Shown here piece after piece: positions 3,379 through 39,964 of a stretch of DNA of 60,241 bases. The notes below the pieces were generated by a model. The model made no database searches. It was given only the letters and a program-made list of their open reading frames with translations, and was not told the origin of the DNA. Origin of the DNA: an uncultured Candidatus Saccharibacteria bacterium (GTDB lineage Bacteria > Patescibacteriota > Doudnabacteria > UBA920); NCBI GenBank assembly GCA_964642585.1, contig CAZXPB010000002.1, positions 1 to 60,241 of the forward strand, written 5' to 3'. Within the stretch, counting starts at the first letter, position 1. The number at the start of each line of letters is the position of its first letter. Made by a program: the position numbers and the translations under genes.

Positions 3379-5214
3379 CTACTCAACTCCAGCACTCAAA
3401 ACAAATTTATAGAGCGCGATAACTCCTGCCGCCACTGCTGCTGCTCCCATCGCAATAATTTTACCCAATGAGTTGTTTTGAGGCTTTTTTGTGCTTTCTC
3501 CAAGTACTTGTGGGTTTGCAGCTTCACTTTGATTAGTTTTTGGAGCTGCTACAGAAGTTGCTTTCGCTGTTGTCTTTGAAGCTGATTTTGTTGCAGTTTT
3601 TGTTGCCGTTTTAGCGCTACTTTTTGAGTTGGTTTTTGTGGTTGTTTTTTCAGCAACTTTACTAACTTCTTCTTTTATGACCTGCGGTAAAACTAAAATA
3701 TTAGTTTCCCCTGCAGTTAGCTTTGTGGTCCACAAAAACCCATCTTCAAAACTAGCGTAACTAGATCCTTTTACTGCTTTGGGGTAGTTAAGAGAATCTA
3801 AAGTTTCTGAGCCATCTTTTAGAGCTAAAGTCTGTCCAGAATTGCGCAGCTGTGCTGGAAGTTGATCTTGAGTGACAACGAAAAACTCCCCACTTTCCAA
3901 TTCCCCTTCCGGCAACAGTTTATGTTTAGTGCCAACATATAACTCTACTTCAGAAAGTTCGGCTGTTTCTTCTCCGGTGTTTTGAATTTCTAAAAATTCT
4001 TTGTCACCTGAATTCGGATCGGCATAGATTTCACTTATTACCAATCCGGAATTATCGTGTCTGGGTTCTGTGTCAGTGTCATCGTCTGAGTCGTCTTCTG
4101 AATCATCTTCTGGCTGTGGCTCAGGAGCTAAACCGTTTGCCTCTCCCAAAGTTTGTGGTGCCCATGCCCACGCGCTACTAAAGTAACTCCACGACATATT
4201 TTCCGGAGTGGTCTCTTCGTAGAACGCTGAATCTAGCGGTAGAAATTGTTTATTAAACAAAGTTACAACATCACCCCCAGAGTTGTTTAGCGCAAACTTC
4301 CCTGCTGGAATTGTGATCGCTAGATATTCATCGGAAGTAATTTGTAAGTCTAAGATTTCATAGGCGTTTGTAGACACTTCGTCTGTTGCTGCGATGTCAT
4401 CTAAAATAAAGCCATTAAGATTTACAGTTTGACTGCCAAGATTATGGATTTCTATTTTTTCAAAACCAGCATCCTCTCCAGCAGGGTTTGGGAGTAGCTC
4501 AGTTATTTTTAACAGCACAGGTGTTGGTTCAGGAACGGGCTCGGGGTCAGGGTCTGGAACAGGAATCGGTGCCGGGTCTGGCTCTGGGTCAGGTTCTGGT
4601 TCTGGCAGCGGTTCTGGTAGAACTTCATCTGAAGAATTTCTTGGACTACTTAATGCCATAATGAAACTAGCTTGCTCACTAAATAAATCCTCTCTTAGCA
4701 GCGAGGTGTTTGCAGTAGGATTTGTACTGGAAACTGTAGGAAAACCATTGGCAGTGCTACCCCAAGCTACTGCATCTATAATATCCCCTAAGTTCTCTTC
4801 TCCAAATCTTAGTGCCACACCATTATTGTCTGCCAATGTCCCAGTAGATGTGGCATCTGGCGTTTTTGAAATTGTAGTAAAACTTGAGTTTGCCCAAAGA
4901 TAGAACCTGTGAGGAAGTACAATCGTTGGCTCAATCCACGCTTTTAGTAGAGTGTCTGATGTGCCGGCGGCAGTGCGCTTTACTAACCTATGGCCATTGA
5001 GGTCAAAAGGTAAATCTGAGGGATTGTACAACTCAATGAAATCTTCTTGAGTATGCCCAGTACCTCCCGTAATTTGGATGGCAGAGATAATTAAATTTGG
5101 ATCTTCGTTGGCCAATGCCACGCGCGCTGGCATTAAAAGCAAACTTAAATTTCCAAGCAATACTGTGGTAACAAAAGTTTGCCGAAAAAACGTAACTAGT
5201 TTTTGCATTCGCAT
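3379..5214 (-). CDS. Surface protein with three lamin-tail-like (LTD) domains, acidic Pro/Glu/Asp linkers and a C-terminal TM anchor
   Basis: 611 aa with an N-terminal signal-like segment. Three LTD-type motifs are present: IQITGGTGHTQEDFIELYNPS, ITELLPNPAGEDAGFEKIEIHN and ISEIYADPNSGDKEFLEIQN. There are PEPEPDPEP and DDSEDDSDDD linkers, a KT-rich tail, then IIAMGAAAVAAGVIALY. Confidence 0.75.
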   Translation of the reverse strand: MRMQKLVTFFRQTFVTTVLLGNLSLLLMPARVALANEDPNLIISAIQITGGTGHTQEDFIELYNPSDLPFDLNGHRLVKRTAAGTSDTLLKAWIEPTIVLPHRFYLWANSSFTTISKTPDATSTGTLADNNGVALRFGEENLGDIIDAVAWGSTANGFPTVSSTNPTANTSLLREDLFSEQASFIMALSSPRNSSDEVLPEPLPEPEPDPEPDPAPIPVPDPDPEPVPEPTPVLLKITELLPNPAGEDAGFEKIEIHNLGSQTVNLNGFILDDIAATDEVSTNAYEILDLQITSDEYLAITIPAGKFALNNSGGDVVTLFNKQFLPLDSAFYEETTPENMSWSYFSSAWAWAPQTLGEANGLAPEPQPEDDSEDDSDDDTDTEPRHDNSGLVISEIYADPNSGDKEFLEIQNTGEETAELSEVELYVGTKHKLLPEGELESGEFFVVTQDQLPAQLRNSGQTLALKDGSETLDSLNYPKAVKGSSYASFEDGFLWTTKLTAGETNILVLPQVIKEEVSKVAEKTTTKTNSKSSAKTATKTATKSASKTTAKATSVAAPKTNQSEAANPQVLGESTKKPQNNSLGKIIAMGAAAVAAGVIALYKFVLSAGVE

Positions 5215-12844: not shown

Positions 12845-14365
12845 ATGTCGGACTTCTTTAAATCCATCCCCCATAACTTTAATGCGAAAGACAAAGCTAT
12901 AATTGAGAAAGCTTTAGAGTTTGCCACAATTGCTCACAAAGATCAAAAGCGAAAAAGTGGCGAACCTTTTGTAATGCACCCAATTTCAGCAGCTATTATT
13001 TTGGGTCAAATATTTCCAGATACGGCGACAATTTGCGGTACCTTGCTGCACGATATTACTGAAGACACCAATACCACCGATGAAAATTTGAAACTGGAGT
13101 TTGGTGATGAAATCGCGAGTTTGGTAGATGGAGTTACAAAACTAGGTAAAGTCAGGCTTCGCAACAGCAAAGATGAATACTATGTAGAAAACTTGCGTAA
13201 AATGTTTATGGCAGTCAGTAAAGATGTCAGAGTTATGCTTATCAAACTTGCTGATAGATTGCATAACATGAGGACTATAAGTTCCCTTCCCAAAGATAAA
13301 CAGCTTAAAATTGCTACCGAGACTTTAGAGATGTATGCCCCAATTGCAGGCAGACTTGGAATTGGTGCATGGAAAGATGAGCTAGAAGATCTATCATTTA
13401 AAATTGTGGATCCTGAAAGTTACCGAGCAACAGCAGATTTACTAGAAGAGCGCCTTGCTGCAAGACAAAAAGGAACTAAGCAGATGCAAAAAGAGTTGGC
13501 CAGTATTTTGCGAATGGAAGGGATTAAGTTTCAAGACATCACAGGACGCACTAAACGGATTTATTCACTATATAAAAAATTACAGCGCTACGACAACGAC
13601 ATTAGTAAAATTTACGATAAAGTGGCGATGCGAATTATTACTAAATCTACTGCCGACTGTTACGCTGCTTTAGGTATTATCCATAAACATTTTAATCCCC
13701 TTCCCGGAAGAGTGAAAGATTTCATTGCGACCCCTAAACCAAATGGATATGAAAGTTTGCACACCACAGTGTTTGATAATGAAGGACGCACTTTTGAAGT
13801 GCAGATTCGTACCGACTTAATGCACGAAACTGCCGAGAGAGGAATTGCCGCGCATTGGTTTTACGAAGAACAAGGAAAAACTGACAAAATCCGCCGCGGA
13901 GCAAATTGGTTTAAGGAACTGCACGCTTGGCAAGAAGAAATGGCCAACAACCCAGATGAATTTTTAGAAGGGTTAAAAATTGATTTCTTTAAAGATAGAA
14001 TTTTCGTCCTTACCCCAAAAGGCGATGTGAAAGATTTACCAATTGGCGCTTCTATTATAGACTTTGCATTTTCGGTTCACTCAGATTTGGGATACCAGAT
14101 GTTAGGTGCAAAAATAAATGGAAAAATGGCTAAAATTACAGATGAGCTCAAGCAAGGAGATGTAGTGGAAGTGCTGAAGTCAAAAAAAGCTGCCACCCCA
14201 TCCAGAGATTGGTTGGCGGCTGCTAAAACTAGTAACGCGCGTGCACATATTCGTAAGTACCTTGCTGAGCATGACAAAGGTCTTTTCCAAAGAGTTCGTG
14301 AACTGAAACTTCAAGATTTTTCATCTCGCCTTCCAGGTCTTCCAACTTTCTTTAGAAAGAAATAA
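12845..14365 (+). CDS. rel: RelA/SpoT-homolog (p)ppGpp hydrolase/synthetase, ending shortly after the TGS domain
   Basis: 506 aa. The HD motif is HPISAAIIL...LHDITEDT. The synthetase motifs are YSLYKKL, GYESLHTTV and EVQIRTDLMH. The TGS motif is IFVLTPKGDVKDLPIGASIIDFAF. Confidence 0.9.
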   Translation: MSDFFKSIPHNFNAKDKAIIEKALEFATIAHKDQKRKSGEPFVMHPISAAIILGQIFPDTATICGTLLHDITEDTNTTDENLKLEFGDEIASLVDGVTKLGKVRLRNSKDEYYVENLRKMFMAVSKDVRVMLIKLADRLHNMRTISSLPKDKQLKIATETLEMYAPIAGRLGIGAWKDELEDLSFKIVDPESYRATADLLEERLAARQKGTKQMQKELASILRMEGIKFQDITGRTKRIYSLYKKLQRYDNDISKIYDKVAMRIITKSTADCYAALGIIHKHFNPLPGRVKDFIATPKPNGYESLHTTVFDNEGRTFEVQIRTDLMHETAERGIAAHWFYEEQGKTDKIRRGANWFKELHAWQEEMANNPDEFLEGLKIDFFKDRIFVLTPKGDVKDLPIGASIIDFAFSVHSDLGYQMLGAKINGKMAKITDELKQGDVVEVLKSKKAATPSRDWLAAAKTSNARAHIRKYLAEHDKGLFQRVRELKLQDFSSRLPGLPTFFRKK

Positions 14366-14418
14366 TTTCTGCATAACTTTAAGTTTTCTTGAACACACTT
14401 ATGCAATAATTTTGGAAT

Positions 14419-14490
14419 GGGCCGGGTTCCGGTGACTAGTGCTGCATTGACATCAGCGCTTTGGGGGTTCAACTCCCCTCCGGTCCACCA
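14419..14490 (+). ncRNA. Non-canonical tRNA-like RNA resembling a tmRNA tRNA-like domain (7-bp acceptor with G3-U70, T arm, ACCA end, no D stem, no anticodon arm)
   Basis: Hand fold: GGGCCGG/CCGGTCC acceptor, GGGGG-TTCAACT-CCCCT T arm, and a 7-bp stem with a 9-nt loop in place of the anticodon arm. An extended -10 TGCAATAAT lies at 14402-14410. Confidence 0.55.
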
Positions 14491-14494
14491 TGAC

Positions 14495-14523
14495 TTGACA
14501 TGGTTCTAAATATTTAATATCAT
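14495..14523 (+). promoter_or_regulatory. Near-consensus promoter TTGACA-17-TATCAT, 5 nt after the CCA of the tRNA-like RNA
   Basis: TTGACA at 14495-14500, a 17-bp spacer, TATCAT at 14518-14523. Confidence 0.6.
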
Positions 14524-14529
14524 TTGATT

Positions 14530-14597
14530 GTCAATGCAGCGCTTGCAGAATTAACTGCACAAAGCACTCAACCAAAAACCGCCTAACGGCGGTTTTT
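14530..14597 (+). ncRNA. Candidate ~70-nt small RNA whose 5' end is complementary to the tRNA-like RNA. It ends at the terminator shared with ndk.
   Basis: It is defined by the promoter at 14495-14523 and the hairpin AAAAACCGCC-TAAC-GGCGGTTTTT at 14574-14597. 14529-14543 pairs 15/15 with 14438-14452. Confidence 0.35.
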
Positions 14598-14610
14598 GGT
14601 TTTGAAGAAA

Positions 14611-19429: not shown

Positions 19430-20656
19430 CTATTTAAGCTTTAGTGCTAAGTCTCCGACTGGAATTGTCTCCTGCTCACGGGTTGCAAGATTTTTTAATT
19501 GTACAGTACCATCTTTTACTTCTGTCTCACCAACAATAATTGCAAACGGAATCCCTTTGCTTTCTGCGTATTTAAATTGCTTGTCTAATTTTGCCGCAGA
19601 GTAGTAAAACTCAACGTTGATCCCCTCAGCGCGAAGGTTAGTGGCAATCTTTAAATAGCTTTCAACCAAAGCTTCATTTTGATTTAAAACTAAAGCGCGA
19701 ATCGGCTGAACTGACTGCATTTGCCCCATTTCAGTAAGCGCTGCAATTAATCTATCTATTCCAATACTACCGCCAACAGCTGGCAGGGATTGTGAGGAAA
19801 ATTGATCAACCAAGCCATCGTAACGACCACCAGCGCAGATTGCACCAAATTCTGGCTTATCTATGAGGATAATTTCAAACACAGTCCCGGTATAATAATC
19901 TATCCCACGCGCAATTGTTGGATCAAATTCCACCTGACCTGCAAGAGAGTACTGTTCTAACTGCTTAATCAGGTCAGCAGTATTTTCTGGTACAGTCCTA
20001 GCCCCGGCAGAAACAAGACTTTTTGCCTTTTCAATTTCTTCTTTACTCACACCATTCTCTTCCATTTCTTTCACAATCCCCTCAATACCGATCTTGTCTA
20101 GTTTATCTATAGCGCGAATTGTTTGTACAGAAAATTCTTTCAAAGTAGCTCTATCATTTAAGCGCACTTTGTAATTCTTTACACCAACTGCTTCTAAAGC
20201 CATACACAAACAAGCAATTACTTCAGCATCTGCTAAGTTTGAGTCTGTTCCGACTGCATCTACATCACATTGATAGAATTCACGCAATCTCCCTTTCTGG
20301 GGATTGTCTGCTCGCCATACTGGCGCAATTTGATATCGCTTAAACGGAAGAACTAACTGTCCTTGATTCTGAGCAACGAAGCGTGCTAATGGCACGGTTA
20401 GATCATAACGCATTGCAACATCGCGATCACCATTATCTTTAAAAGAGTAAACTAATTTTTCATCTTCTCCATATTTACCCATTAGGATTTCTTTGTACTC
20501 TAGTACTGGAGTAGACAACGGTAAAAAACCAAACCGTTCAAAAACGCTCTGGATTTTAGAAAACATTTGCTGCCGCGCAAGTTGCTCTGAAGGCGCGTAA
20601 TCGCGGAAACCTTTGAGCAAGCGTGGTTCAATTTTTTGTTTGTCTGTTTTTGACAT
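19430..20656 (-). CDS. hisS: Histidine--tRNA ligase (catalytically intact copy)
   Basis: 408 aa. Motif 2 is FKRYQIAPVWRADNPQKGRLREFYQCDVD. It also has RGIDYYTGTVFE and GGRYDGL, plus a C-terminal anticodon-binding domain. Confidence 0.9.
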   Translation of the reverse strand: MSKTDKQKIEPRLLKGFRDYAPSEQLARQQMFSKIQSVFERFGFLPLSTPVLEYKEILMGKYGEDEKLVYSFKDNGDRDVAMRYDLTVPLARFVAQNQGQLVLPFKRYQIAPVWRADNPQKGRLREFYQCDVDAVGTDSNLADAEVIACLCMALEAVGVKNYKVRLNDRATLKEFSVQTIRAIDKLDKIGIEGIVKEMEENGVSKEEIEKAKSLVSAGARTVPENTADLIKQLEQYSLAGQVEFDPTIARGIDYYTGTVFEIILIDKPEFGAICAGGRYDGLVDQFSSQSLPAVGGSIGIDRLIAALTEMGQMQSVQPIRALVLNQNEALVESYLKIATNLRAEGINVEFYYSAAKLDKQFKYAESKGIPFAIIVGETEVKDGTVQLKNLATREQETIPVGDLALKLK

Positions 20657-25258: not shown

Positions 25259-26563
25259 CTAGCGCTCAAGTCTTTTTTTAACTTCTATGATTATTTTATC
25301 ATAAGAAAACACTTCTTGCATCCCGCTTTTTACATCCCGCAAGATCACCATATCATCCATAGCTTCCTTTTGACCCATAATCAGTGCAATTGGGGCTTTG
25401 CTTTCTTCGGCTTGCTTGAGTTGGTTTTTTACACCCATTGTCCCGAAGTGATCGTGGACATGAATATTTTCAGCAATCAAATCTCTGAACAAGCGAAGAC
25501 TTCGTTTAGAAGCTAACTCCCCTAGTGGTACCAAGAACACTTCATTTTTATTGACCGCGGCAGTTTCAACTTCAGAAAGTTCTAATGCGCGTGACAACCC
25601 AGCAACACTACCCACAAAACCAAACGCAGGACTAGCTTTACCAATAATATTTTTTACCAGCAAGTCATGGTGTGCCGCTTCTCCAATGACAATTGTCTGA
25701 TTCCCTTTTTTATATTTCACAACTAAGTTAGTGCCGGTAGTTCCCTCGGTGCCAACATACAGTTGATTTAACTGATATGGTAAACCAAGTTCGTCTAAAG
25801 CCTCAAGGATGTCTGTAAATTGTTTGCGCGCATTTGTATCTAGAAAATCTACAATGGCTGGTGCTTCGGCAGTAGTAAGCTGACAATCTAAATTTTCACA
25901 TCGCAAAACATTTAAAACACGGCCGCGAATATGATTATTACAATTTTCGCATAATTCAAACTCTTTGCCTTTTAGAAAATCCTTGAGAACGTTGGCATAG
26001 GCATTTTGCACTGATGGGTCACCTGAAGTATTTATATCTAACTGCACAGATTCTTCGTTCAATCCTAATCGCAACACCAAATCCCAAACCGCACTAATTA
26101 CTTGAGCTTCTGACAAATGATTGAATGTGCCAAGCACTTCATAGCCAAATTGATAATTAAACCTAACGGAGGAACTGCCTTCTGACTCAGCTACATTACC
26201 AATATACATCCATTTGGACATTGGTTCGCTTTCTACTATTTTTGATTGGGCATAATGCCTAAGAACTGACGGAAGTAACTGAGAACGCACACCATACGAC
26301 TTGCCTCCAAACTCAGATACCAAAATTCTTTCTAGTTCTTCCGGCTGATTTTTGAAATATTCAGAATAAATTTTATGTTCTTCTAAAATTGAGGTTTCCA
26401 CTGGAGCGAAACCATACAGTGAACCGACAGTTCTGACCTGTTCTAAAACAACACTCCAATATTGATGGGATTGAGTAGCAATATCTCTCAAACCTGTAAG
26501 CGCACCGGTCTTTGCCAGTTTCTTAATTATTTTTGGAGTAGCGGTTTTTTGCAATTCAGTCAT
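25259..26563 (-). CDS. HisRS-like paralog with degenerate catalytic motifs (HisZ-like) and a 4-Cys insertion
   Basis: 434 aa with the overall HisRS architecture and anticodon-binding domain. Motif 2 is reduced to VRFNYQFGYEVLG, RGLDYYTG to NQLYVGTEGTTGT, and GGRYD to GEAAHHD. The insertion is CENCNNHIRGRVLNVLRCENLDC. Confidence 0.7.
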   Translation of the reverse strand: MTELQKTATPKIIKKLAKTGALTGLRDIATQSHQYWSVVLEQVRTVGSLYGFAPVETSILEEHKIYSEYFKNQPEELERILVSEFGGKSYGVRSQLLPSVLRHYAQSKIVESEPMSKWMYIGNVAESEGSSSVRFNYQFGYEVLGTFNHLSEAQVISAVWDLVLRLGLNEESVQLDINTSGDPSVQNAYANVLKDFLKGKEFELCENCNNHIRGRVLNVLRCENLDCQLTTAEAPAIVDFLDTNARKQFTDILEALDELGLPYQLNQLYVGTEGTTGTNLVVKYKKGNQTIVIGEAAHHDLLVKNIIGKASPAFGFVGSVAGLSRALELSEVETAAVNKNEVFLVPLGELASKRSLRLFRDLIAENIHVHDHFGTMGVKNQLKQAEESKAPIALIMGQKEAMDDMVILRDVKSGMQEVFSYDKIIIEVKKRLER

Positions 26564-27280: not shown

Positions 27281-28681
27281 ATGAGCACTTATATGACTTC
27301 ACCAGAAATTTACACTAAAAATATAGGCAGTCCAGAACCACTTCCACCAAAGAAACCAAAGGGAAGAAATCTCCTAAAATGGCTAGTAATATTTATTGCC
27401 ATTTTAATTTTAGGACTTGGTGGTTTTTTACTAGTTCGTGCGACAGGAATTGCCAATAAAATTTTTGTCGGCCAAGAATCAAGTCTGTACACAAGAATTT
27501 CAGATTTAATTTCTAGTCAAACTGGCGGGAGTAAACTTGATGGCGAAAACGAAGGTCAAATAAATGTTTTATTACTTGGTATTGGTGGTGAAGGTCACGA
27601 TGGCCCTTACTTGTCTGACACAATTATTGTGGCGCAGATTAGACCCTCCGAGAAAAAAGCAACTATGATTTCGATCCCCCGAGATTACTTGGTAAACACT
27701 AAGGAAATTGGGCAAAGAAAAATCAACGCTGTGTTTGCAGAAAGTTTCCAAGCCAGTGGTGATTGGGATAAAGCCGGAGCTAGTATTAGAGATGTGGTGT
27801 CCAAAATGACTGGACTAGATATTCCCTACTTTGCAGTTTTGGATTTCAAAGGGTTTGAAAAAACCATTGACCTGCTTGGTGGAGTGGATGTACATGTGGA
27901 CCGCACCTTTACCGACTACACATATCCAGACACAAGAAATGGATACTTACCAGCTGTAACTTTTAAAGAAGGTCCTGAAAACATGGATGGCAAACGTGCG
28001 CTAATTTTTGCTCGCTCTCGGCATGCAGCCGGTGAAGAAGGAACAGACTTTGCCCGCAGTGCTCGTCAACAAAAAATTATTCAAGCAGCCAAAGAAAAAG
28101 TAGTCGCACTAAATATTGTTACCGACAGTAAAAAGATTAACGAATTGTTCTCTATCATTGGTGATCATTTCCATACCAATATGAGCCCTGGCCAGATCAT
28201 TCGTGCCTACGGCTTAACAAAAGATTTCGGAAAAGAGAATATAATAAGTCTAAGTCTTGACCCTGAAGGCGGCATCATTTGCCCACAAGTACTAGAAGAA
28301 AGTGGCGCGTGGGTCTTAACACTCTGTAGCGGTAAAACTACTAACGACCTAAAAGATTATTTTAAAAACAGTTTTTCAACTGGGCAACTCACAGCTGAAA
28401 AAGCCACCGTTTGGCTTGCCGACAGCAGTACTACTGGCCTACTCTACAAAAAAGCTGAAAAAGAACTAACCAACGCCGGCCTAACTGTTTACAAAGTGGT
28501 GTACTCAGGAAAGCCTCTCAGTCAAACAGTTGTTTACAGTGTGAATCACAAACCATCAACCTCAGAGTTCATAACTAATAAATTAAATGGTAGCCCAGTT
28601 TCACTACCTCCCCCAGGAATTAAAATTGATCCATCTAAAGTTGATGTAATAGTCATTTTAGGAACTCAGGAAACTCAGTAA
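27281..28681 (+). CDS. LytR-CpsA-Psr (LCP) family protein
   Basis: 466 aa with a TM anchor, NVLLLGIGGEG...SDTIIVAQI...ISIPRDY and FARSRH motifs. Confidence 0.85.
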   Translation: MSTYMTSPEIYTKNIGSPEPLPPKKPKGRNLLKWLVIFIAILILGLGGFLLVRATGIANKIFVGQESSLYTRISDLISSQTGGSKLDGENEGQINVLLLGIGGEGHDGPYLSDTIIVAQIRPSEKKATMISIPRDYLVNTKEIGQRKINAVFAESFQASGDWDKAGASIRDVVSKMTGLDIPYFAVLDFKGFEKTIDLLGGVDVHVDRTFTDYTYPDTRNGYLPAVTFKEGPENMDGKRALIFARSRHAAGEEGTDFARSARQQKIIQAAKEKVVALNIVTDSKKINELFSIIGDHFHTNMSPGQIIRAYGLTKDFGKENIISLSLDPEGGIICPQVLEESGAWVLTLCSGKTTNDLKDYFKNSFSTGQLTAEKATVWLADSSTTGLLYKKAEKELTNAGLTVYKVVYSGKPLSQTVVYSVNHKPSTSEFITNKLNGSPVSLPPPGIKIDPSKVDVIVILGTQETQ

Positions 28682-36665: not shown

Positions 36666-39600
36666 CTAAATAAGGTTTTCGCTTTGTGATCTAGGTTCAT
36701 CACTCGGGATGTTTAGCTCATCATTTAAGAACTGCTCTGTAGGAATTGAGAGTTGTTGTTGATTTGGATCAATCATTTCATAATCTGCTACCGCATCAGG
36801 TTCATCAGTTTTTTTCCTACGAGTTAACCAAGAATACAACACTGGAGTGGTAAACAAAGATAGAATCCCTGAACTTAAAATTCCAAAGATTACTACGATT
36901 GAAAGACCACGCCAAAATGGTGAGAACACTGCAAGTGGCAGCAAACCTGCCAAAGCAGTTACTTTAGTTAACATAACTGGGCGGAAACGAATTCCTGAAG
37001 CCAAAGCAATGGCTTCTTTTTTGTTCATACCTTCAGCCACTTTGCGGTTGGCATAGTCAATGAGGAAAATACCAACGTTTTCGGCAATACCAATCACCAT
37101 CAGAATTCCAATGACTTCAAGGAAACCAAATTGTCCCCCAGCAAAGAAGGCTAACGCTGGAAACACTCCAATGAAAATTAGAGGTACAGCAAACAAAACA
37201 ATTAGTGGTTGCAAAAAAGATTTAAAGAACACAACGAAGACCACATAGGTGACTAAAATTGCCAATGCAATCGCTAAGAATAATTCTTGGAAAGATTTTT
37301 CGAATTCATTAACACCTACCCTATCTTCAAATGCTCTGTCGGAAACTTCTAACTGAGCAGTATTTGCTTTTGCCCAATCGGAAATTTTACGCTGAATATT
37401 AATCGCATCACGCGCATCTTTCACGCGGGCACTAACTTGGGCGTATCTATCCCCTTGCGCGCGGCGGATTGATCCTGGTACATCTGACTCCACGATAGTG
37501 GCAACATCAGAAACTTTCACTGGTCCATTTTGACCATAGATTTGAATGGCGCCAAGAGCAGCAACTGTATTTGGCTTTGTATCTTCGGAAATTCTCAACA
37601 CTACGTCTAGCTCACCAACTCGATAAAGAGTTTTTTCACCAAGTAGCCCTGCAATCTGACCATACACCTGCGCTGCACTAATACCGCTCGCAGCAATCTT
37701 TTCTGGATTTACAGCAACAACAAGTTCTTTACTGGTAGTGTCATTATCTGTAATAACATTGGCCACTTCTTCGTATGAGCGAAGTTCATTGGCAATTTTG
37801 CTACTTGCATTTTGGAGTTTAGCGGAATCATTTTCAAAGATTTTCACGGTGACTGGGTAGGCTTCACTTGGTGGACCTGCTCCGCTTTCAGAAGCAAGCG
37901 CACGTTCACCAAATTTAGCTTGCAGTTCTTTTTGAAGAGCTTCTGCGATTTCCGGACTCTTTACATCACGATCTACTGATGGTTTCAAATGTACTAACAA
38001 ACTAATGTTTTGACTAGATCCATTACCGCTAGCATCACGATAGAAAAATACACTAATTTCTTTCAAATGATTTTTCAAAATATTTTCAATTGTAGAAATC
38101 TGAGTTTGAAGTTGACCGTCAGTTTGGTTAGCTGGCTTTGGCACTGTTAGTTGAATAAACTCTACATCATCTGGACTAGCAAATTGGACCTGACGAACTT
38201 GATTAGTTGCAAACAACGCTCCTGAAATCCCAATTGGAATAACCAGTCCGAGAACAATCACAGCAATTTGTAGCCAAAGGTGTTTTAACACATATCTATT
38301 AGCGCGGATTAACCACTGAGCGACTGGCCAAAGAGTATGCACATCATCTTCATCATGAAGATTGCCAGTTGCATCTGCTTTCAGAAACTTAGCTGCAAGC
38401 CAAGTAAGAAATACTAAAGGTACAAAATAAGACGCAATAAGTGCTGGGAAAACTGTCAGTGGAATGTACTTAATGATTTGTCCAAAAGTTCCGGAAACAA
38501 CGCTAAATGGAATAAACACAATCAAAGAAGTAAGTACGGCGATGAACAAACCAAGGCCGATTACATCCATTGAGCGCAGTACAGCGTTTTGACCTTTGAA
38601 TCCAATTTCCATGTATCGTTTAATTGATTCAAGTACCACAATCGCAGGATCGACAATCAATCCGAGCACCAAGATAAATGAGAACAACACTAAGGTATTC
38701 ATCTGAATTCCAAGTACAGCGAGCACAATGAAAGTAAACAAGAATGACAATGGAATAGATAGCGCTGAGATTAAAGCACTACGCCAATCTAAGAACAAAA
38801 GCATCCCAATAATTAGTAGCCAAATACCACCGAAGATAAAACCTAGATAACCAAATGGGCCATCTAATTCCCATTTACTACCAACTGCAGCTTCAACAAT
38901 TTCATCAACTTGGTTTTGCGCATCTTGAGCTTGGTTAAAGACGAGTGCATAATCACTCTTTCCATCTGGGGCTTTAGTTTCTTCAACAACTTTTTCTACT
39001 TCTTTACCAACACTCAACAGATCTGCGCCTGCTTCAAGACGAACTTCAAAAAGCAGCGCTGGTTGAATTTTAAATTTATTCTCTGCTTTATCTAAATAAC
39101 CAACCCGATGAACACCTTTACCTGTGTCTAAAGCTGAATACACGGAAGCGATATCTGACAGCTTCACTGTTCGCGCTGGAATTTCTGGAGTTGCAGGTAA
39201 GTTAACAGGGATATTTCGTACATCTTCTAGACTCTTCAAGCTTGCTTCACCTGAGATTGGAATTTTCTTTCCATCAATAACACTCTCCCCTAACGGGAAA
39301 CCAATGTTAGCTGCGGTTAACTGTGCGATTACATCTGGGAACTGAAATTGTGGTGGCAGTTCAATGAAAATCTTTTTATGCCATCAATAGCCAATAACTT
39401 TTCTTTAATAAAATCAGTTTGAGTATTTAAATCTAAGAGGCTTTTTGGACCAGATACTGCCACGAAAAAAGGAGCACTACCAGTTTCTGGTACGAAGATG
39501 TTTGGATCACTTATTCCTTCTGGAAGTGTGACTGTAGTAAGTTTAGTTCTCGCTTCTTGAATTGCCATATTTACATCAACCCCATCGGAAAAAGACAACA

Positions 39601-39964
39601 CGACAGTAGAAACACTGTCTTGTGATGTAGAGCTAATTTCTTTCACACCTTTCAAGTCGCGAAGAGAGTTTTCAATCGGAGCGGTAATGGTATCATTTAC
39701 AGTTTCAGGACCAGCGCCAGGCGCAATAGTAGAAACAATGGCAATCGGTACTTGAATCTCAGGAAATCCTTGCACACTTAATTGAAAATAACTTCCAGCA
39801 CCAACAAGGACGATAATTGCTAAAAGCATTGCAGTTAACTGTTTTTGTTTTAGGAAAAATTGAACAATTTTCCCATTCAAGCCCAATTTGCTAGGCATAT
39901 TACTATTTGAAAGATTATCCATGGTGAAATTTTGATTAAAAATTAAATATAAAAAGACCCTCAA
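36666..39964 (-). pseudogene. RND (AcrB-like) efflux permease split by a -1 frameshift at an A5 run. The fragments are 39329-39964 and 36666-39239.
   Basis: Track ORFs of 211 aa and 857 aa are the N-terminal and remaining parts of one RND protein. Reading GGC ATA AAA then slipping -1 gives K-IFIELPPQFQFPDVIAQLTAANIGFPLGESVIDGKKIPISGEASLKSLEDV, which continues in the frame of the second ORF. The run is plus-strand T5 at 39373-39377. The true start is uncertain (ATG 39922 or 39898 is more likely than 39964). Confidence 0.7.

Follow-up and report, generated by a model that had tools for sequence, protein, structure and literature searches.

A tRNA-like RNA with tmRNA topology and its co-evolving antisense RNA form a candidate two-RNA module in Patescibacteria

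Introduction

The closest described counterparts of the element reported here are transfer-messenger RNAs (tmRNAs) reduced to their tRNA-like domain (TLD). Mycobacteriophage DS6A carries such a TLD-only tmRNA-like gene, without a message domain (tmRNA Website ID 11587; PMC4131195), which we located at positions 28478-28560 of JN698994 (ca. 83 nt). A similar TLD-only molecule is reported to inhibit tmRNA strongly, perhaps via titration of SmpB (Mao et al. 2009, cited in PMC4131195). Forms of tmRNA devoid of a coding sequence (CDS) occur in mitochondria and in the plastids of Mallomonadaceae (ca. 65 bp), and the 2025 tmRNA database holds nine 'Standard NoCDS' sequences, three of them from Patescibacteria, with genus 9FT-COMBO-53-11 being named (9FT-COMBO-53-11 sp001772805) (PMC11915505). 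So far these TLD-only genes have been regarded as curiosities of one phage and a few organelles, without any known regulation. We analysed a stretch of 60,241 nt from an uncultured Candidatus Saccharibacteria bacterium (GenBank assembly GCA_964642585.1, contig CAZXPB010000002.1), hereafter called the window, whose rel-ndk spacer (14366-14610; 245 nt) holds a whole two-RNA module: a tRNA-like RNA (RNA-1) and, immediately downstream, a small RNA (RNA-2) with a 5' end complementary to it. On balance we read this locus as a self-contained module in which a TLD-only tmRNA, or tRNA-Ala mimic, would be controlled by a dedicated antisense RNA, possibly as a pair resembling toxin-antitoxin (TA) systems.

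RNA-1 and the DS6A gene have in common an acceptor stem with G3.U70, a GG D-analogue, a closed P2a hairpin, and a T arm. The DS6A gene, however, is phage-borne, whereas RNA-1 is chromosomal (Patescibacteria), has a conserved 9-nt UUGACA loop, and is accompanied by an apparently dedicated antisense gene; by eye, no adjacent complementary RNA or promoter was seen beside the DS6A TLD gene. The CDS-less database entries are also tmRNA-like and without a tag frame, but they are treated as the organism's own tmRNA and no partner RNA is described for them. Three of these entries stem from Patescibacteria, so RNA-1 may be among them already, listed as a tmRNA without a CDS. TLD-only tmRNA-like RNAs as such were thus known already; new, as far as we found, is the co-evolving private antisense RNA, as a TLD-like RNA with a dedicated antisense RNA is not described in PMC4131195, PMC11915505, or the other papers and databases that we searched.

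Three further kinds of system invite comparison. The permuted two-piece tmRNAs of Alpha- and Betaproteobacteria and Cyanobacteria equally consist of two paired chains around a tRNA-like domain. They have an intermolecular acceptor stem, arise from one precursor that is cut in two, and carry a tag frame and pseudoknots, whereas in our module RNA-1 forms its acceptor stem by itself, RNA-2 is preceded by a promoter of its own, and no frame is conserved. Antisense pairs and type VIII RNA-RNA TA systems (hok/sok, CopA/CopT, RNAI/RNAII; SdsR/RyeA, CreT/CreA) offer a possible analogy in their strongly expressed small RNA (sRNA), in the single-stranded end that attacks a YUNR loop before the duplex extends, and also in their allele-diversifying pairing, their sporadic spread, and the survival of the neutralising partner as an orphan. 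Unlike these pairs, the module has a target that is tRNA-like rather than an mRNA or a replication primer, and its genes lie in tandem on the same strand without overlapping. Finally, the E. coli sponge 3'ETS-leuZ is a spacer fragment from a real tRNA operon that binds conserved multi-target sRNAs. It is likewise a stable RNA derived from a tRNA locus and pairing with an sRNA; in the module, by contrast, it is the tRNA-like body itself that pairs, and the sRNA seed is lineage-specific.

Structure of the two RNAs

The features of the module are as follows (window coordinates):

14402-14410, plus strand: putative promoter of RNA-1, an extended -10 element (TGCAATAAT) situated 8 nt upstream of G1 and recognised from its sequence.
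14419-14490, plus strand: RNA-1, a 72-nt tRNA-like (tmRNA-TLD-like) RNA with an encoded ACCA end and with covariation in all three helices.
14419-14425, plus strand: 5' strand of the acceptor stem (GGGCCGG), forming 7 bp with CCGGTCC at 14480-14486; the third pair is G.U.
14426-14437, plus strand: single-stranded 12-nt linker (GUUCCGGUGACU) in the place of the D arm, with an invariant GGU.
14438-14460, plus strand: hairpin equivalent to tmRNA P2a, with AGTGCTG (14438-14444) and CAGCGCT (14454-14460) forming 7 bp around a 9-nt loop (CATTGACAT); predicted target of RNA-2.
14463-14479, plus strand: T arm (GGGGG-TTCAACT-CCCCT), fully paired (100%) in all four lineages, one of its pairs being compensatory.
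14480-14490, plus strand: 3' strand of the acceptor stem (CCGGTCC, 14480-14486) followed by the discriminator A and CCA (ACCA, 14487-14490); invariant GTCCACCA.
14495-14523, plus strand: promoter of RNA-2 (TTGACA-17-TATCAT), with 11 of the 12 consensus positions, starting four nt past the CCA.
ca. 14529-14603, plus strand: RNA-2, about 75 nt, with its own promoter, 5' pairing region, stem-loop, and terminator.
14529-14543, plus strand: 5' pairing region of RNA-2 (TGTCAATGCAGCGCT), a 15-nt inverted repeat with 14438-14452 including one G.U pair.
14544-14559, plus strand: internal stem-loop of RNA-2 (TGCAG-AATTAA-CTGCA; 5 bp), with compensatory changes.
14570-14603, plus strand: intrinsic terminator with a 14-bp stem, the loop TAAC and a T run, seen as an inverted repeat at 14570-14601 and in predicted folds; the terminator scan registers it on the minus strand.

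An initial annotation, made from the letters of the window, had listed the stems, the T arm, the CCA, both promoters, the terminator and an open reading frame (ORF), and all of these were recovered where it had placed them, including the 15-nt complementarity between the two RNAs. The full module occurs in four lineages: the window, L085, L013, and L080/L076. The 72-nt RNA has the tmRNA-TLD topology that had been proposed for it, and its alanine identity set is invariant among the four: G1-C72, G2-C71, G3.U70, A73 and the CCA never change, while neighbouring acceptor pairs do (5:68 is CG or AU, and 6:67 is GC, AU or UA). The pair C4-G69 is invariant as well. The linker varies in length from 11 to 13 nt but keeps G14, G15 and T16, and its GG stands at the distance from the acceptor stem (4-6 nt) that it has in the Rfam consensus for tmRNA (RF00023). 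The hairpin has a 7-bp stem and a 9-nt loop in all four lineages. Its loop, CA-TTGACA-T in the window, follows the pattern NN-UUGACA-Y, of which the hexamer TTGACA is invariant; UUGA within it conforms to YUNR, the U-turn motif that speeds loop-tail nucleation in antisense systems. A junction of 1-2 nt (2 nt in the window) precedes the T arm, which combines a 5-bp stem with a 7-nt loop of consensus TTCRANN. Upstream, a TGN plus a -10-like hexamer is found at the same distance in L085 (TGTAACAAT) and in L013 (TGCCATACT). RNA-1 is richer in GC (62%) than the window (40%), and its fold on its own is energetically ordinary (z = -1.3 for the 72 nt). It has no terminator of its own, the sole one downstream of RNA-1 and rel being that of RNA-2.

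RNA-2 is preceded by a strong -35/-10 pair at the equivalent place in six loci (window, L085, L083, L012, L013 and L080). The spacing is 16-17 nt in all six alleles, the predicted start falls at (U/A)GUCAA, and the promoter is kept even where RNA-1 is deleted. By this conservation RNA-2 is a separately promoted RNA, as the initial annotation had it, and its 5' end covaries with RNA-1 (see below). The internal stem reads CTGAG/CTCAG in L085 and L083 and CTCAA/TTGAG in L013. In the predicted RNA-2 folds of four AT-rich lineages a 5' tail of about 9-12 nt (UGUCAA) is free, and the 3' half of the pairing region is folded into an extended internal stem with a conserved CAAAGC segment; the predicted fold of the L080 RNA-2 has no free 5' tail. 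No further site complementary to the RNA-2 seed was found beyond chance in the 60-kb window. Together with the allele-specific pairing described below, this makes RNA-2 appear dedicated to RNA-1. The terminator (AAAAACCGCC..GGCGGTTTTTGGTTTT) is close to the plain terminator that stands right after rel in the module-less L014 and L022, so that RNA-2 may make use of a resident bidirectional rel/ndk terminator.

Covariation of the helices and of the RNA-1:RNA-2 duplex

A curated alignment of the four full lineages, covering RNA-1 and the first 15 nt of RNA-2, provides the decisive support, beyond what one sequence could show: every helix, including the duplex between the two RNAs, is kept through compensatory changes. 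For the tRNA-like fold 98.7% of the alignment cells are paired, as against 49-64% in controls with slid partners. Of its 19 pairs, 9 have changes on both sides, and none of 500 column shuffles reached the observed values. In the hairpin, six of the seven stem pairs change on both sides, and one pair of the T stem is either GC or AU. For the alternative structure, made of the acceptor stem, the T stem and the duplex, 98.1% of the cells are paired (slid controls, 46-54%); 9 of the 15 RNA-1:RNA-2 pairs change on both sides, and again 0 of 500 shuffles attain the observed values. Among the duplex positions that change are the two loop nucleotides before TTGACA. They read CA, TC, AG or CC, and are matched in RNA-2 by TG, GA, CT or GG, respectively; as they are unpaired in the hairpin, their covariation can reflect only the duplex. 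Predicted duplex energies range from -21 to -32 kcal/mol for cognate pairs, as compared to -10 to -20 kcal/mol for non-cognate ones. When the 245-nt spacer was shuffled by mononucleotides, only 5 of 1000 shuffles (0.5%) produced a Watson-Crick plus G.U helix of 15 bp or longer. The locus is conserved and covarying in four lineages, in its helices as well as in the duplex, and among the options raised in the initial annotation, covariation and promoter conservation now back the one in which a dedicated antisense RNA accompanies a tRNA-Ala mimic.

Distribution and loss of the module

In the four lineages that have it in full, the module stands in either of two unrelated contexts (rel-ndk or rseP-pheS), and the GC content of the genomes is 37-40% or 64%; in both contexts the module follows a gene on the same strand. 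Among homologues of the window Rel protein, L085 (89% identical) carries all of the module but pairs through another sequence, and L083/L084 (96%) have an intact RNA-2 while RNA-1 is reduced to its last 8 nt (GTCCACCA); no module was found downstream of rel in L086-L090. Within about 27 GTDB species with a Rel that is 62-85% identical, the full module occurs only in L013 (84%). L012 (83%) has RNA-2 and its promoter and no RNA-1, and the remaining species have a plain terminator or other sequence after rel. The fourth lineage, L076/L080 (identical in the module region), came from a degenerate pattern scan of JGI metagenomes. It originates from Hainich groundwater, has a genome of 64% GC, and carries its module between an M50/RseP protease gene and pheST. 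Its PheS relatives are Patescibacteria, and four species with a PheS 80-91% identical to that of L080 are module-less at that site.

This distribution also settles a connection drawn in the initial annotation, which had pointed to the location of the module behind a Rel protein without its C-terminal regulatory domains. The window Rel (12845-14365, plus strand) is indeed short, with HD, RelA_SpoT and TGS domains only. However, Rel ends after TGS (ca. 500-517 aa) in all 120 closest homologues, so that the domain loss is a trait of the clade and no local truncation. With the module of L080 at rseP-pheS, and with the module lacking in about 30 Rel relatives, the linkage to rel is incidental.

Within the species of the window we compared 10 contigs from different samples that encode an identical Rel protein. 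In four of them 30 nt are deleted, so that the 5' strands of both acceptor stem and hairpin are missing along with the linker; a C-to-T change in the 3' acceptor strand goes with this deletion. In another (L007), G1 of RNA-1 is changed to T, and L004 and L007 have a 3-nt CAA insertion in the RNA-2 linker before the terminator, at the equivalent of ca. 14572. The module is thus polymorphic within one species. Altogether, RNA-1 has been lost independently three times with RNA-2 being kept (the conspecific 30-nt deletion, L083/L084, and L012), while RNA-1 without RNA-2 was never found among the loci examined. In comparison with the few TLD-only genes known before, the TLD-like RNA is here conserved in free-standing chromosomal modules, with an antisense specificity that diversifies between lineages.

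The module is not detectably phage- or plasmid-borne. No integrase or mobile genes lie beside it in the window or in the L080 context, a blastn search of 50,697 phage and 72,556 plasmid records gave no match, and the exact module pattern had no match in IMG/VR. A looser architecture pattern gave at least 120 chance matches in IMG/VR, and of the 80 listed loci that were scanned none scored with our covariance model of RNA-1 (R1, see below). IMG/VR contigs (L047-L057) do contain recurrent 45-nt 3' halves of tRNA-Val(GAC), running from the anticodon loop TTGACAT to the CCA; they often lie near contig ends and probably are integrase attachment sites.

The same intergenic hot spots are home to other elements. 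GC-rich palindromic repeats (…CCCCGGC…GCCGGGG…) follow rel in L016, L017 and L020, and also occupy the rseP-pheS spacer of L213, L214 and L216. The repeats look like MITE-like or homing-type insertions, and in L213 and L216 a small GIY-YIG ORF lies between them.

Comparison with tRNA and tmRNA models

Neither ARAGORN nor Rfam at its gathering thresholds makes a call at the module locus. ARAGORN reports three ordinary tRNAs in the window, all of which also encode their CCA, and even at relaxed settings it calls no tmRNA. In a permissive Rfam search, tmRNA (RF00023) is the best match of the tRNA clan in three lineages; it aligns end to end, via the acceptor stem and T arm only, and scores 13.0-13.9 bits against a gathering threshold of 47. 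The checks by ARAGORN and Rfam that had been recommended with the initial annotation leave RNA-1 below the threshold, with tmRNA as its best match. RNA-1 has the alanine identity set of tmRNA (G3.U70, A73, CCA) and the layout of its TLD, with no D stem, a GG linker, a helix, 1-2 nt, and a T arm of 5 bp and 7 nt. It does not have the message domain, in place of which stands the 9-nt loop, with neither a tag frame nor pseudoknots. The topology of acceptor stem, D-analogue, closed P2a and T arm within ca. 65-85 nt is instead that of the TLD-only RNAs.

Other classes fit less well. The canonical cloverleaf, with a D arm, a 5-bp anticodon stem and a 7-nt loop, is absent, and a canonical or D-armless (mitochondrial-type) tRNA was rejected because the anticodons that ARAGORN, with relaxed or mitochondrial settings, assigned to the homologues are inconsistent (Ser, Val, Gln, Leu). 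A decayed ssrA at its ancestral site was discarded as well, since ARAGORN finds no tRNA or tmRNA there in 36 related loci, and so was a type I toxin peptide, the spacer ORFs of 20-53 aa not being conserved in L085, L013 and L080. The locus does show what is expected of an antisense, TA-like pair, namely a strongly promoted sRNA and a target with cognate, co-evolving complementarity. The model of permuted tmRNA (RF04321) reaches 11-16 bits (gathering threshold, 47) and matches the T arm and 3' end only; a permuted two-piece tmRNA was rejected on account of the intramolecular acceptor stem and the lack of a conserved frame. An apparent circularly permuted tmRNA gene was noted elsewhere, in metagenome contig L060 (1606-1649, minus strand, and downstream), where a piece with T arm and CCA is followed about 60 nt later by GGGGCAGATCGGGATCGACAGG.

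We built two covariance models, R1 for RNA-1 and R2 for the promoter plus RNA-2. With R1, true members score 78-88 bits, the 5'-deleted haplotype 44, real tRNAs at most 42 and the DS6A gene 23; no further copy was detected in the window or in about 80 loci. Applied to the window and about 50 Patescibacteria loci, R2 recovers known loci only (the full modules, L012, L083 and the deleted haplotype), so that RNA-2 is confined to modules and their remnants. As ARAGORN and Rfam at gathering thresholds miss the module, R1 and R2 could be used to annotate it across metagenomes and to re-examine the 'CDS-less tmRNA' entries of the database for overlooked partner RNAs.

Discussion

A mechanism consistent with these observations can be outlined. 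RNA-1 would correspond to one half of a tRNA, acceptor stem plus T arm, and bear the complete set of alanine identity elements, without a D stem, a usable anticodon arm or a message. It probably is matured by tRNA-processing enzymes and charged by AlaRS; by its structure it cannot decode or template a tag. In the AT-rich lineages, the 5' tail of RNA-2 (UGUCAA...) would nucleate on the loop UUGACA of RNA-1, and pairing would extend to a duplex of 14-15 bp, opening the P2a-like hairpin. Because of the strand polarity, the body of RNA-2 would come to lie at the TLD-proximal end of the duplex, against the tRNA-like core. There it may block protein partners or trigger decay, leaving RNA-1 inactivated or destabilised. 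Since RNA-1 has no terminator, transcripts from its own promoter or reading through from upstream would carry RNA-2 in cis, and in such read-through transcripts the long helix is predicted to form: the 185-nt unit folds with it at -76.6 kcal/mol (z = -6.6).

Least certain in this scheme is the biological role. We favour an accessory, selfish or defensive pair similar to RNA-RNA TA systems, in which RNA-1, when unpaired, would titrate away SmpB, AlaRS or EF-Tu and so disturb trans-translation or alanylation, with RNA-2 restraining it. Pointing this way are the sporadic and polymorphic distribution, the two unrelated contexts, the diversifying pairing, and the three decays that each began with RNA-1. 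A more specific form of this idea, to be taken as tentative and of rather low probability, is an all-RNA TA or abortive-infection module with a chargeable TLD decoy as toxin and a labile, highly transcribed antisense RNA as antitoxin, where a shut-off of transcription (e.g., by phage) would free the stable tRNA-like decoy. If so, it would be the first case of an RNA toxin that mimics a tRNA, and the ultra-small Patescibacteria would possess an addiction or defence system made of RNA only. More generally, a pair that controls or sabotages trans-translation or alanylation would amount to a new way of regulating ribosome rescue and, in organisms with minimal genomes, to a new kind of RNA-RNA element for addiction or defence.

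Several points weigh against our interpretation. The alignment comprises only four lineages, and because we assembled it manually with the proposed structure as a guide, the pair counts are biased towards that structure; they are strong but amount to no formal probability. RNA-1 scores 13-14 bits with RF00023 as compared to 34.7 bits for the DS6A gene, which is too low to tell homology to tmRNA from convergence starting from a tRNA. The anticodon loop of tRNA-Val(GAC) has the same sequence, TTGACAT, as the loop of RNA-1. That all three losses started with RNA-1 is statistically weak, at about 1 in 8 by chance. A duplex of 14-15 bp is short for RNase III. No canonical ssrA was found within the 60-kb window by ARAGORN and Rfam, and the idea that RNA-1 is an extra TLD draws on a phylum-level figure: with 5252 standard tmRNAs in 6765 Patescibacteria genomes (0.78 per genome; 2025 tmRNA database), members of this phylum normally carry a conventional ssrA. 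Lastly, we infer alanylation, the direction of control and the role, like all functional claims made here, from sequence comparison.

The first alternative is that the pair serves its host: a charged Ala-RNA-1 with a beneficial job, its level being tuned by RNA-2. Such a job might be ribosome rescue without a tag, as proposed for the CDS-less organellar tmRNAs, or the donation of alanine to an acceptor outside the ribosome, such as cell wall or lipid. The long maintenance of the structure and of the alanine identity set speaks for it, as do the CDS-less tmRNAs of mitochondria, plastids and possibly one genus of Patescibacteria. We nonetheless regard it as possible rather than likely. The module is absent from most close relatives, and RNA-1 is knocked out in 4 of the 10 conspecific contigs; no aminoacyl-transferase, smpB or alaS gene lies nearby; and fast-diversifying, allele-specific pairing is more typical of selfish or incompatibility systems.

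It is unlikely that the roles are reversed, RNA-2 being a regulatory sRNA with mRNA targets and RNA-1 its tRNA-like sponge, as in 3'ETS-leuZ. RNA-2 does have the layout of a classical sRNA (5' seed, stem-loop, terminator), and it does persist without RNA-1 in L012, L083/L084, and the L002-type haplotype. The seed of an mRNA-targeting sRNA should be conserved, however, whereas beyond UGUCAA that of RNA-2 differs from lineage to lineage and tracks its own RNA-1, and the 60 kb searched hold no additional complementary site beyond chance. The invariant alanine identity elements also are unexplained in a mere sponge.

Quite improbable is a third scheme, in which a single 185-nt transcript alternates between the tRNA-like fold and the long-range helix and serves the gene upstream of it, in cis, as a structured 3'-UTR or a processing element, RNA-2 not being separate. 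The missing terminator between RNA-1 and RNA-2, the stable 185-nt fold, and the placement of the module after a same-strand gene in both contexts would suit it. Yet a near-consensus -35/-10 lies between the two parts in six loci and survives the deletion of RNA-1, the upstream genes are unrelated (rel, rseP), and the encoded ACCA and tRNA-type ends point to the release of a discrete RNA.

The initial annotation had also considered, with reserve, a split two-piece tmRNA in which RNA-2 gives the 3' strand of P2 in trans together with a tag frame (AELTAQSTQPKTA), and this we judge very unlikely. The duplex does sit where P2 of tmRNA begins, the candidate ORF (GCA...TAA, 14545-14586) is present in the window with its initial Ala codon and its stop codon in the terminator loop, and the 3-nt insertion of L004 and L007 keeps its frame. 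By eye, however, a comparison of the RNA-2 frames in six loci shows that L085, L013, L012 and L080 share neither frame, Ala resume codon, stop nor hydrophobic C-terminus, and a 2-nt difference in loop length (L085, L083) shifts the frame; the lack of a common frame and this indel lead us to reject a message-bearing split tmRNA. A stop at that point of the terminator loop is peculiar to the window lineage, L083/L084 having an in-frame UGA there and another in-frame stop, UAA, upstream; it is explained by the sequence of the terminator itself, which is similar to the plain terminator between rel and ndk in relatives that lack the module. Moreover, there are no pseudoknots, RNA-2 leaves the duplex on the TLD-proximal side, opposite to the topology of tmRNA, RNA-1 is dispensable in nature, and Patescibacteria normally have a standard tmRNA.

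Least probable of all is that the locus is debris, i.e. a decayed tRNA or ssrA pseudogene or the remnant of an att site with fortuitous complementarity: although ARAGORN and Rfam (gathering thresholds) are silent and the 5'-deleted haplotype resembles the 45-nt tRNA 3'-half att fragments common in viral contigs, this is effectively refuted by the compensatory changes in all helices and the duplex across four lineages, with conserved promoters, no integrase or mobile genes nearby, and no tRNA or tmRNA at the site in any relative.

Genomic region and other observations

The exact Rel protein and a scan of GTDB genomes assign the window to Patescibacteria (CPR), the related MAGs being labelled Saccharibacteria or Doudnabacteria. 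The window is a core chromosomal region, with groES/EL, nusB, rel, ndk, a PPIase gene, comEC, hisS, ftsZ/A and lepB, and further with der, pth, dprA, topA, dnaK/J/grpE/hrcA, uvrA/C and the gene for RNase J. The genes smpB and alaS, integrase genes and other mobile-element genes were not found in its 60 kb. The ndk gene is convergent with rel and the module, so that the terminator of RNA-2 faces it.

Two HisRS-like genes are located about 5 kb apart. The one at 19430-20656 (minus strand) is a clear HisRS with an anticodon-binding domain; that at 25259-26563 (minus strand) belongs to the same Pfam families with a much weaker match, and might be HisZ-like or a divergent paralogue. An AcrB/RND-type transporter is apparently distributed over two adjoining ORFs, 36666-39239 and 39329-39964 (both minus strand), the 211-aa product matching the family profile in its N-terminal portion and that of 857 aa in the remainder; this could be due to a frameshift, a pseudogene, or a genuinely split gene. 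Finally, the gene at 3379-5214 (minus strand) encodes a protein of 611 aa with three lamin-tail-domain repeats, which is of a surface type and unusual for a small genome.

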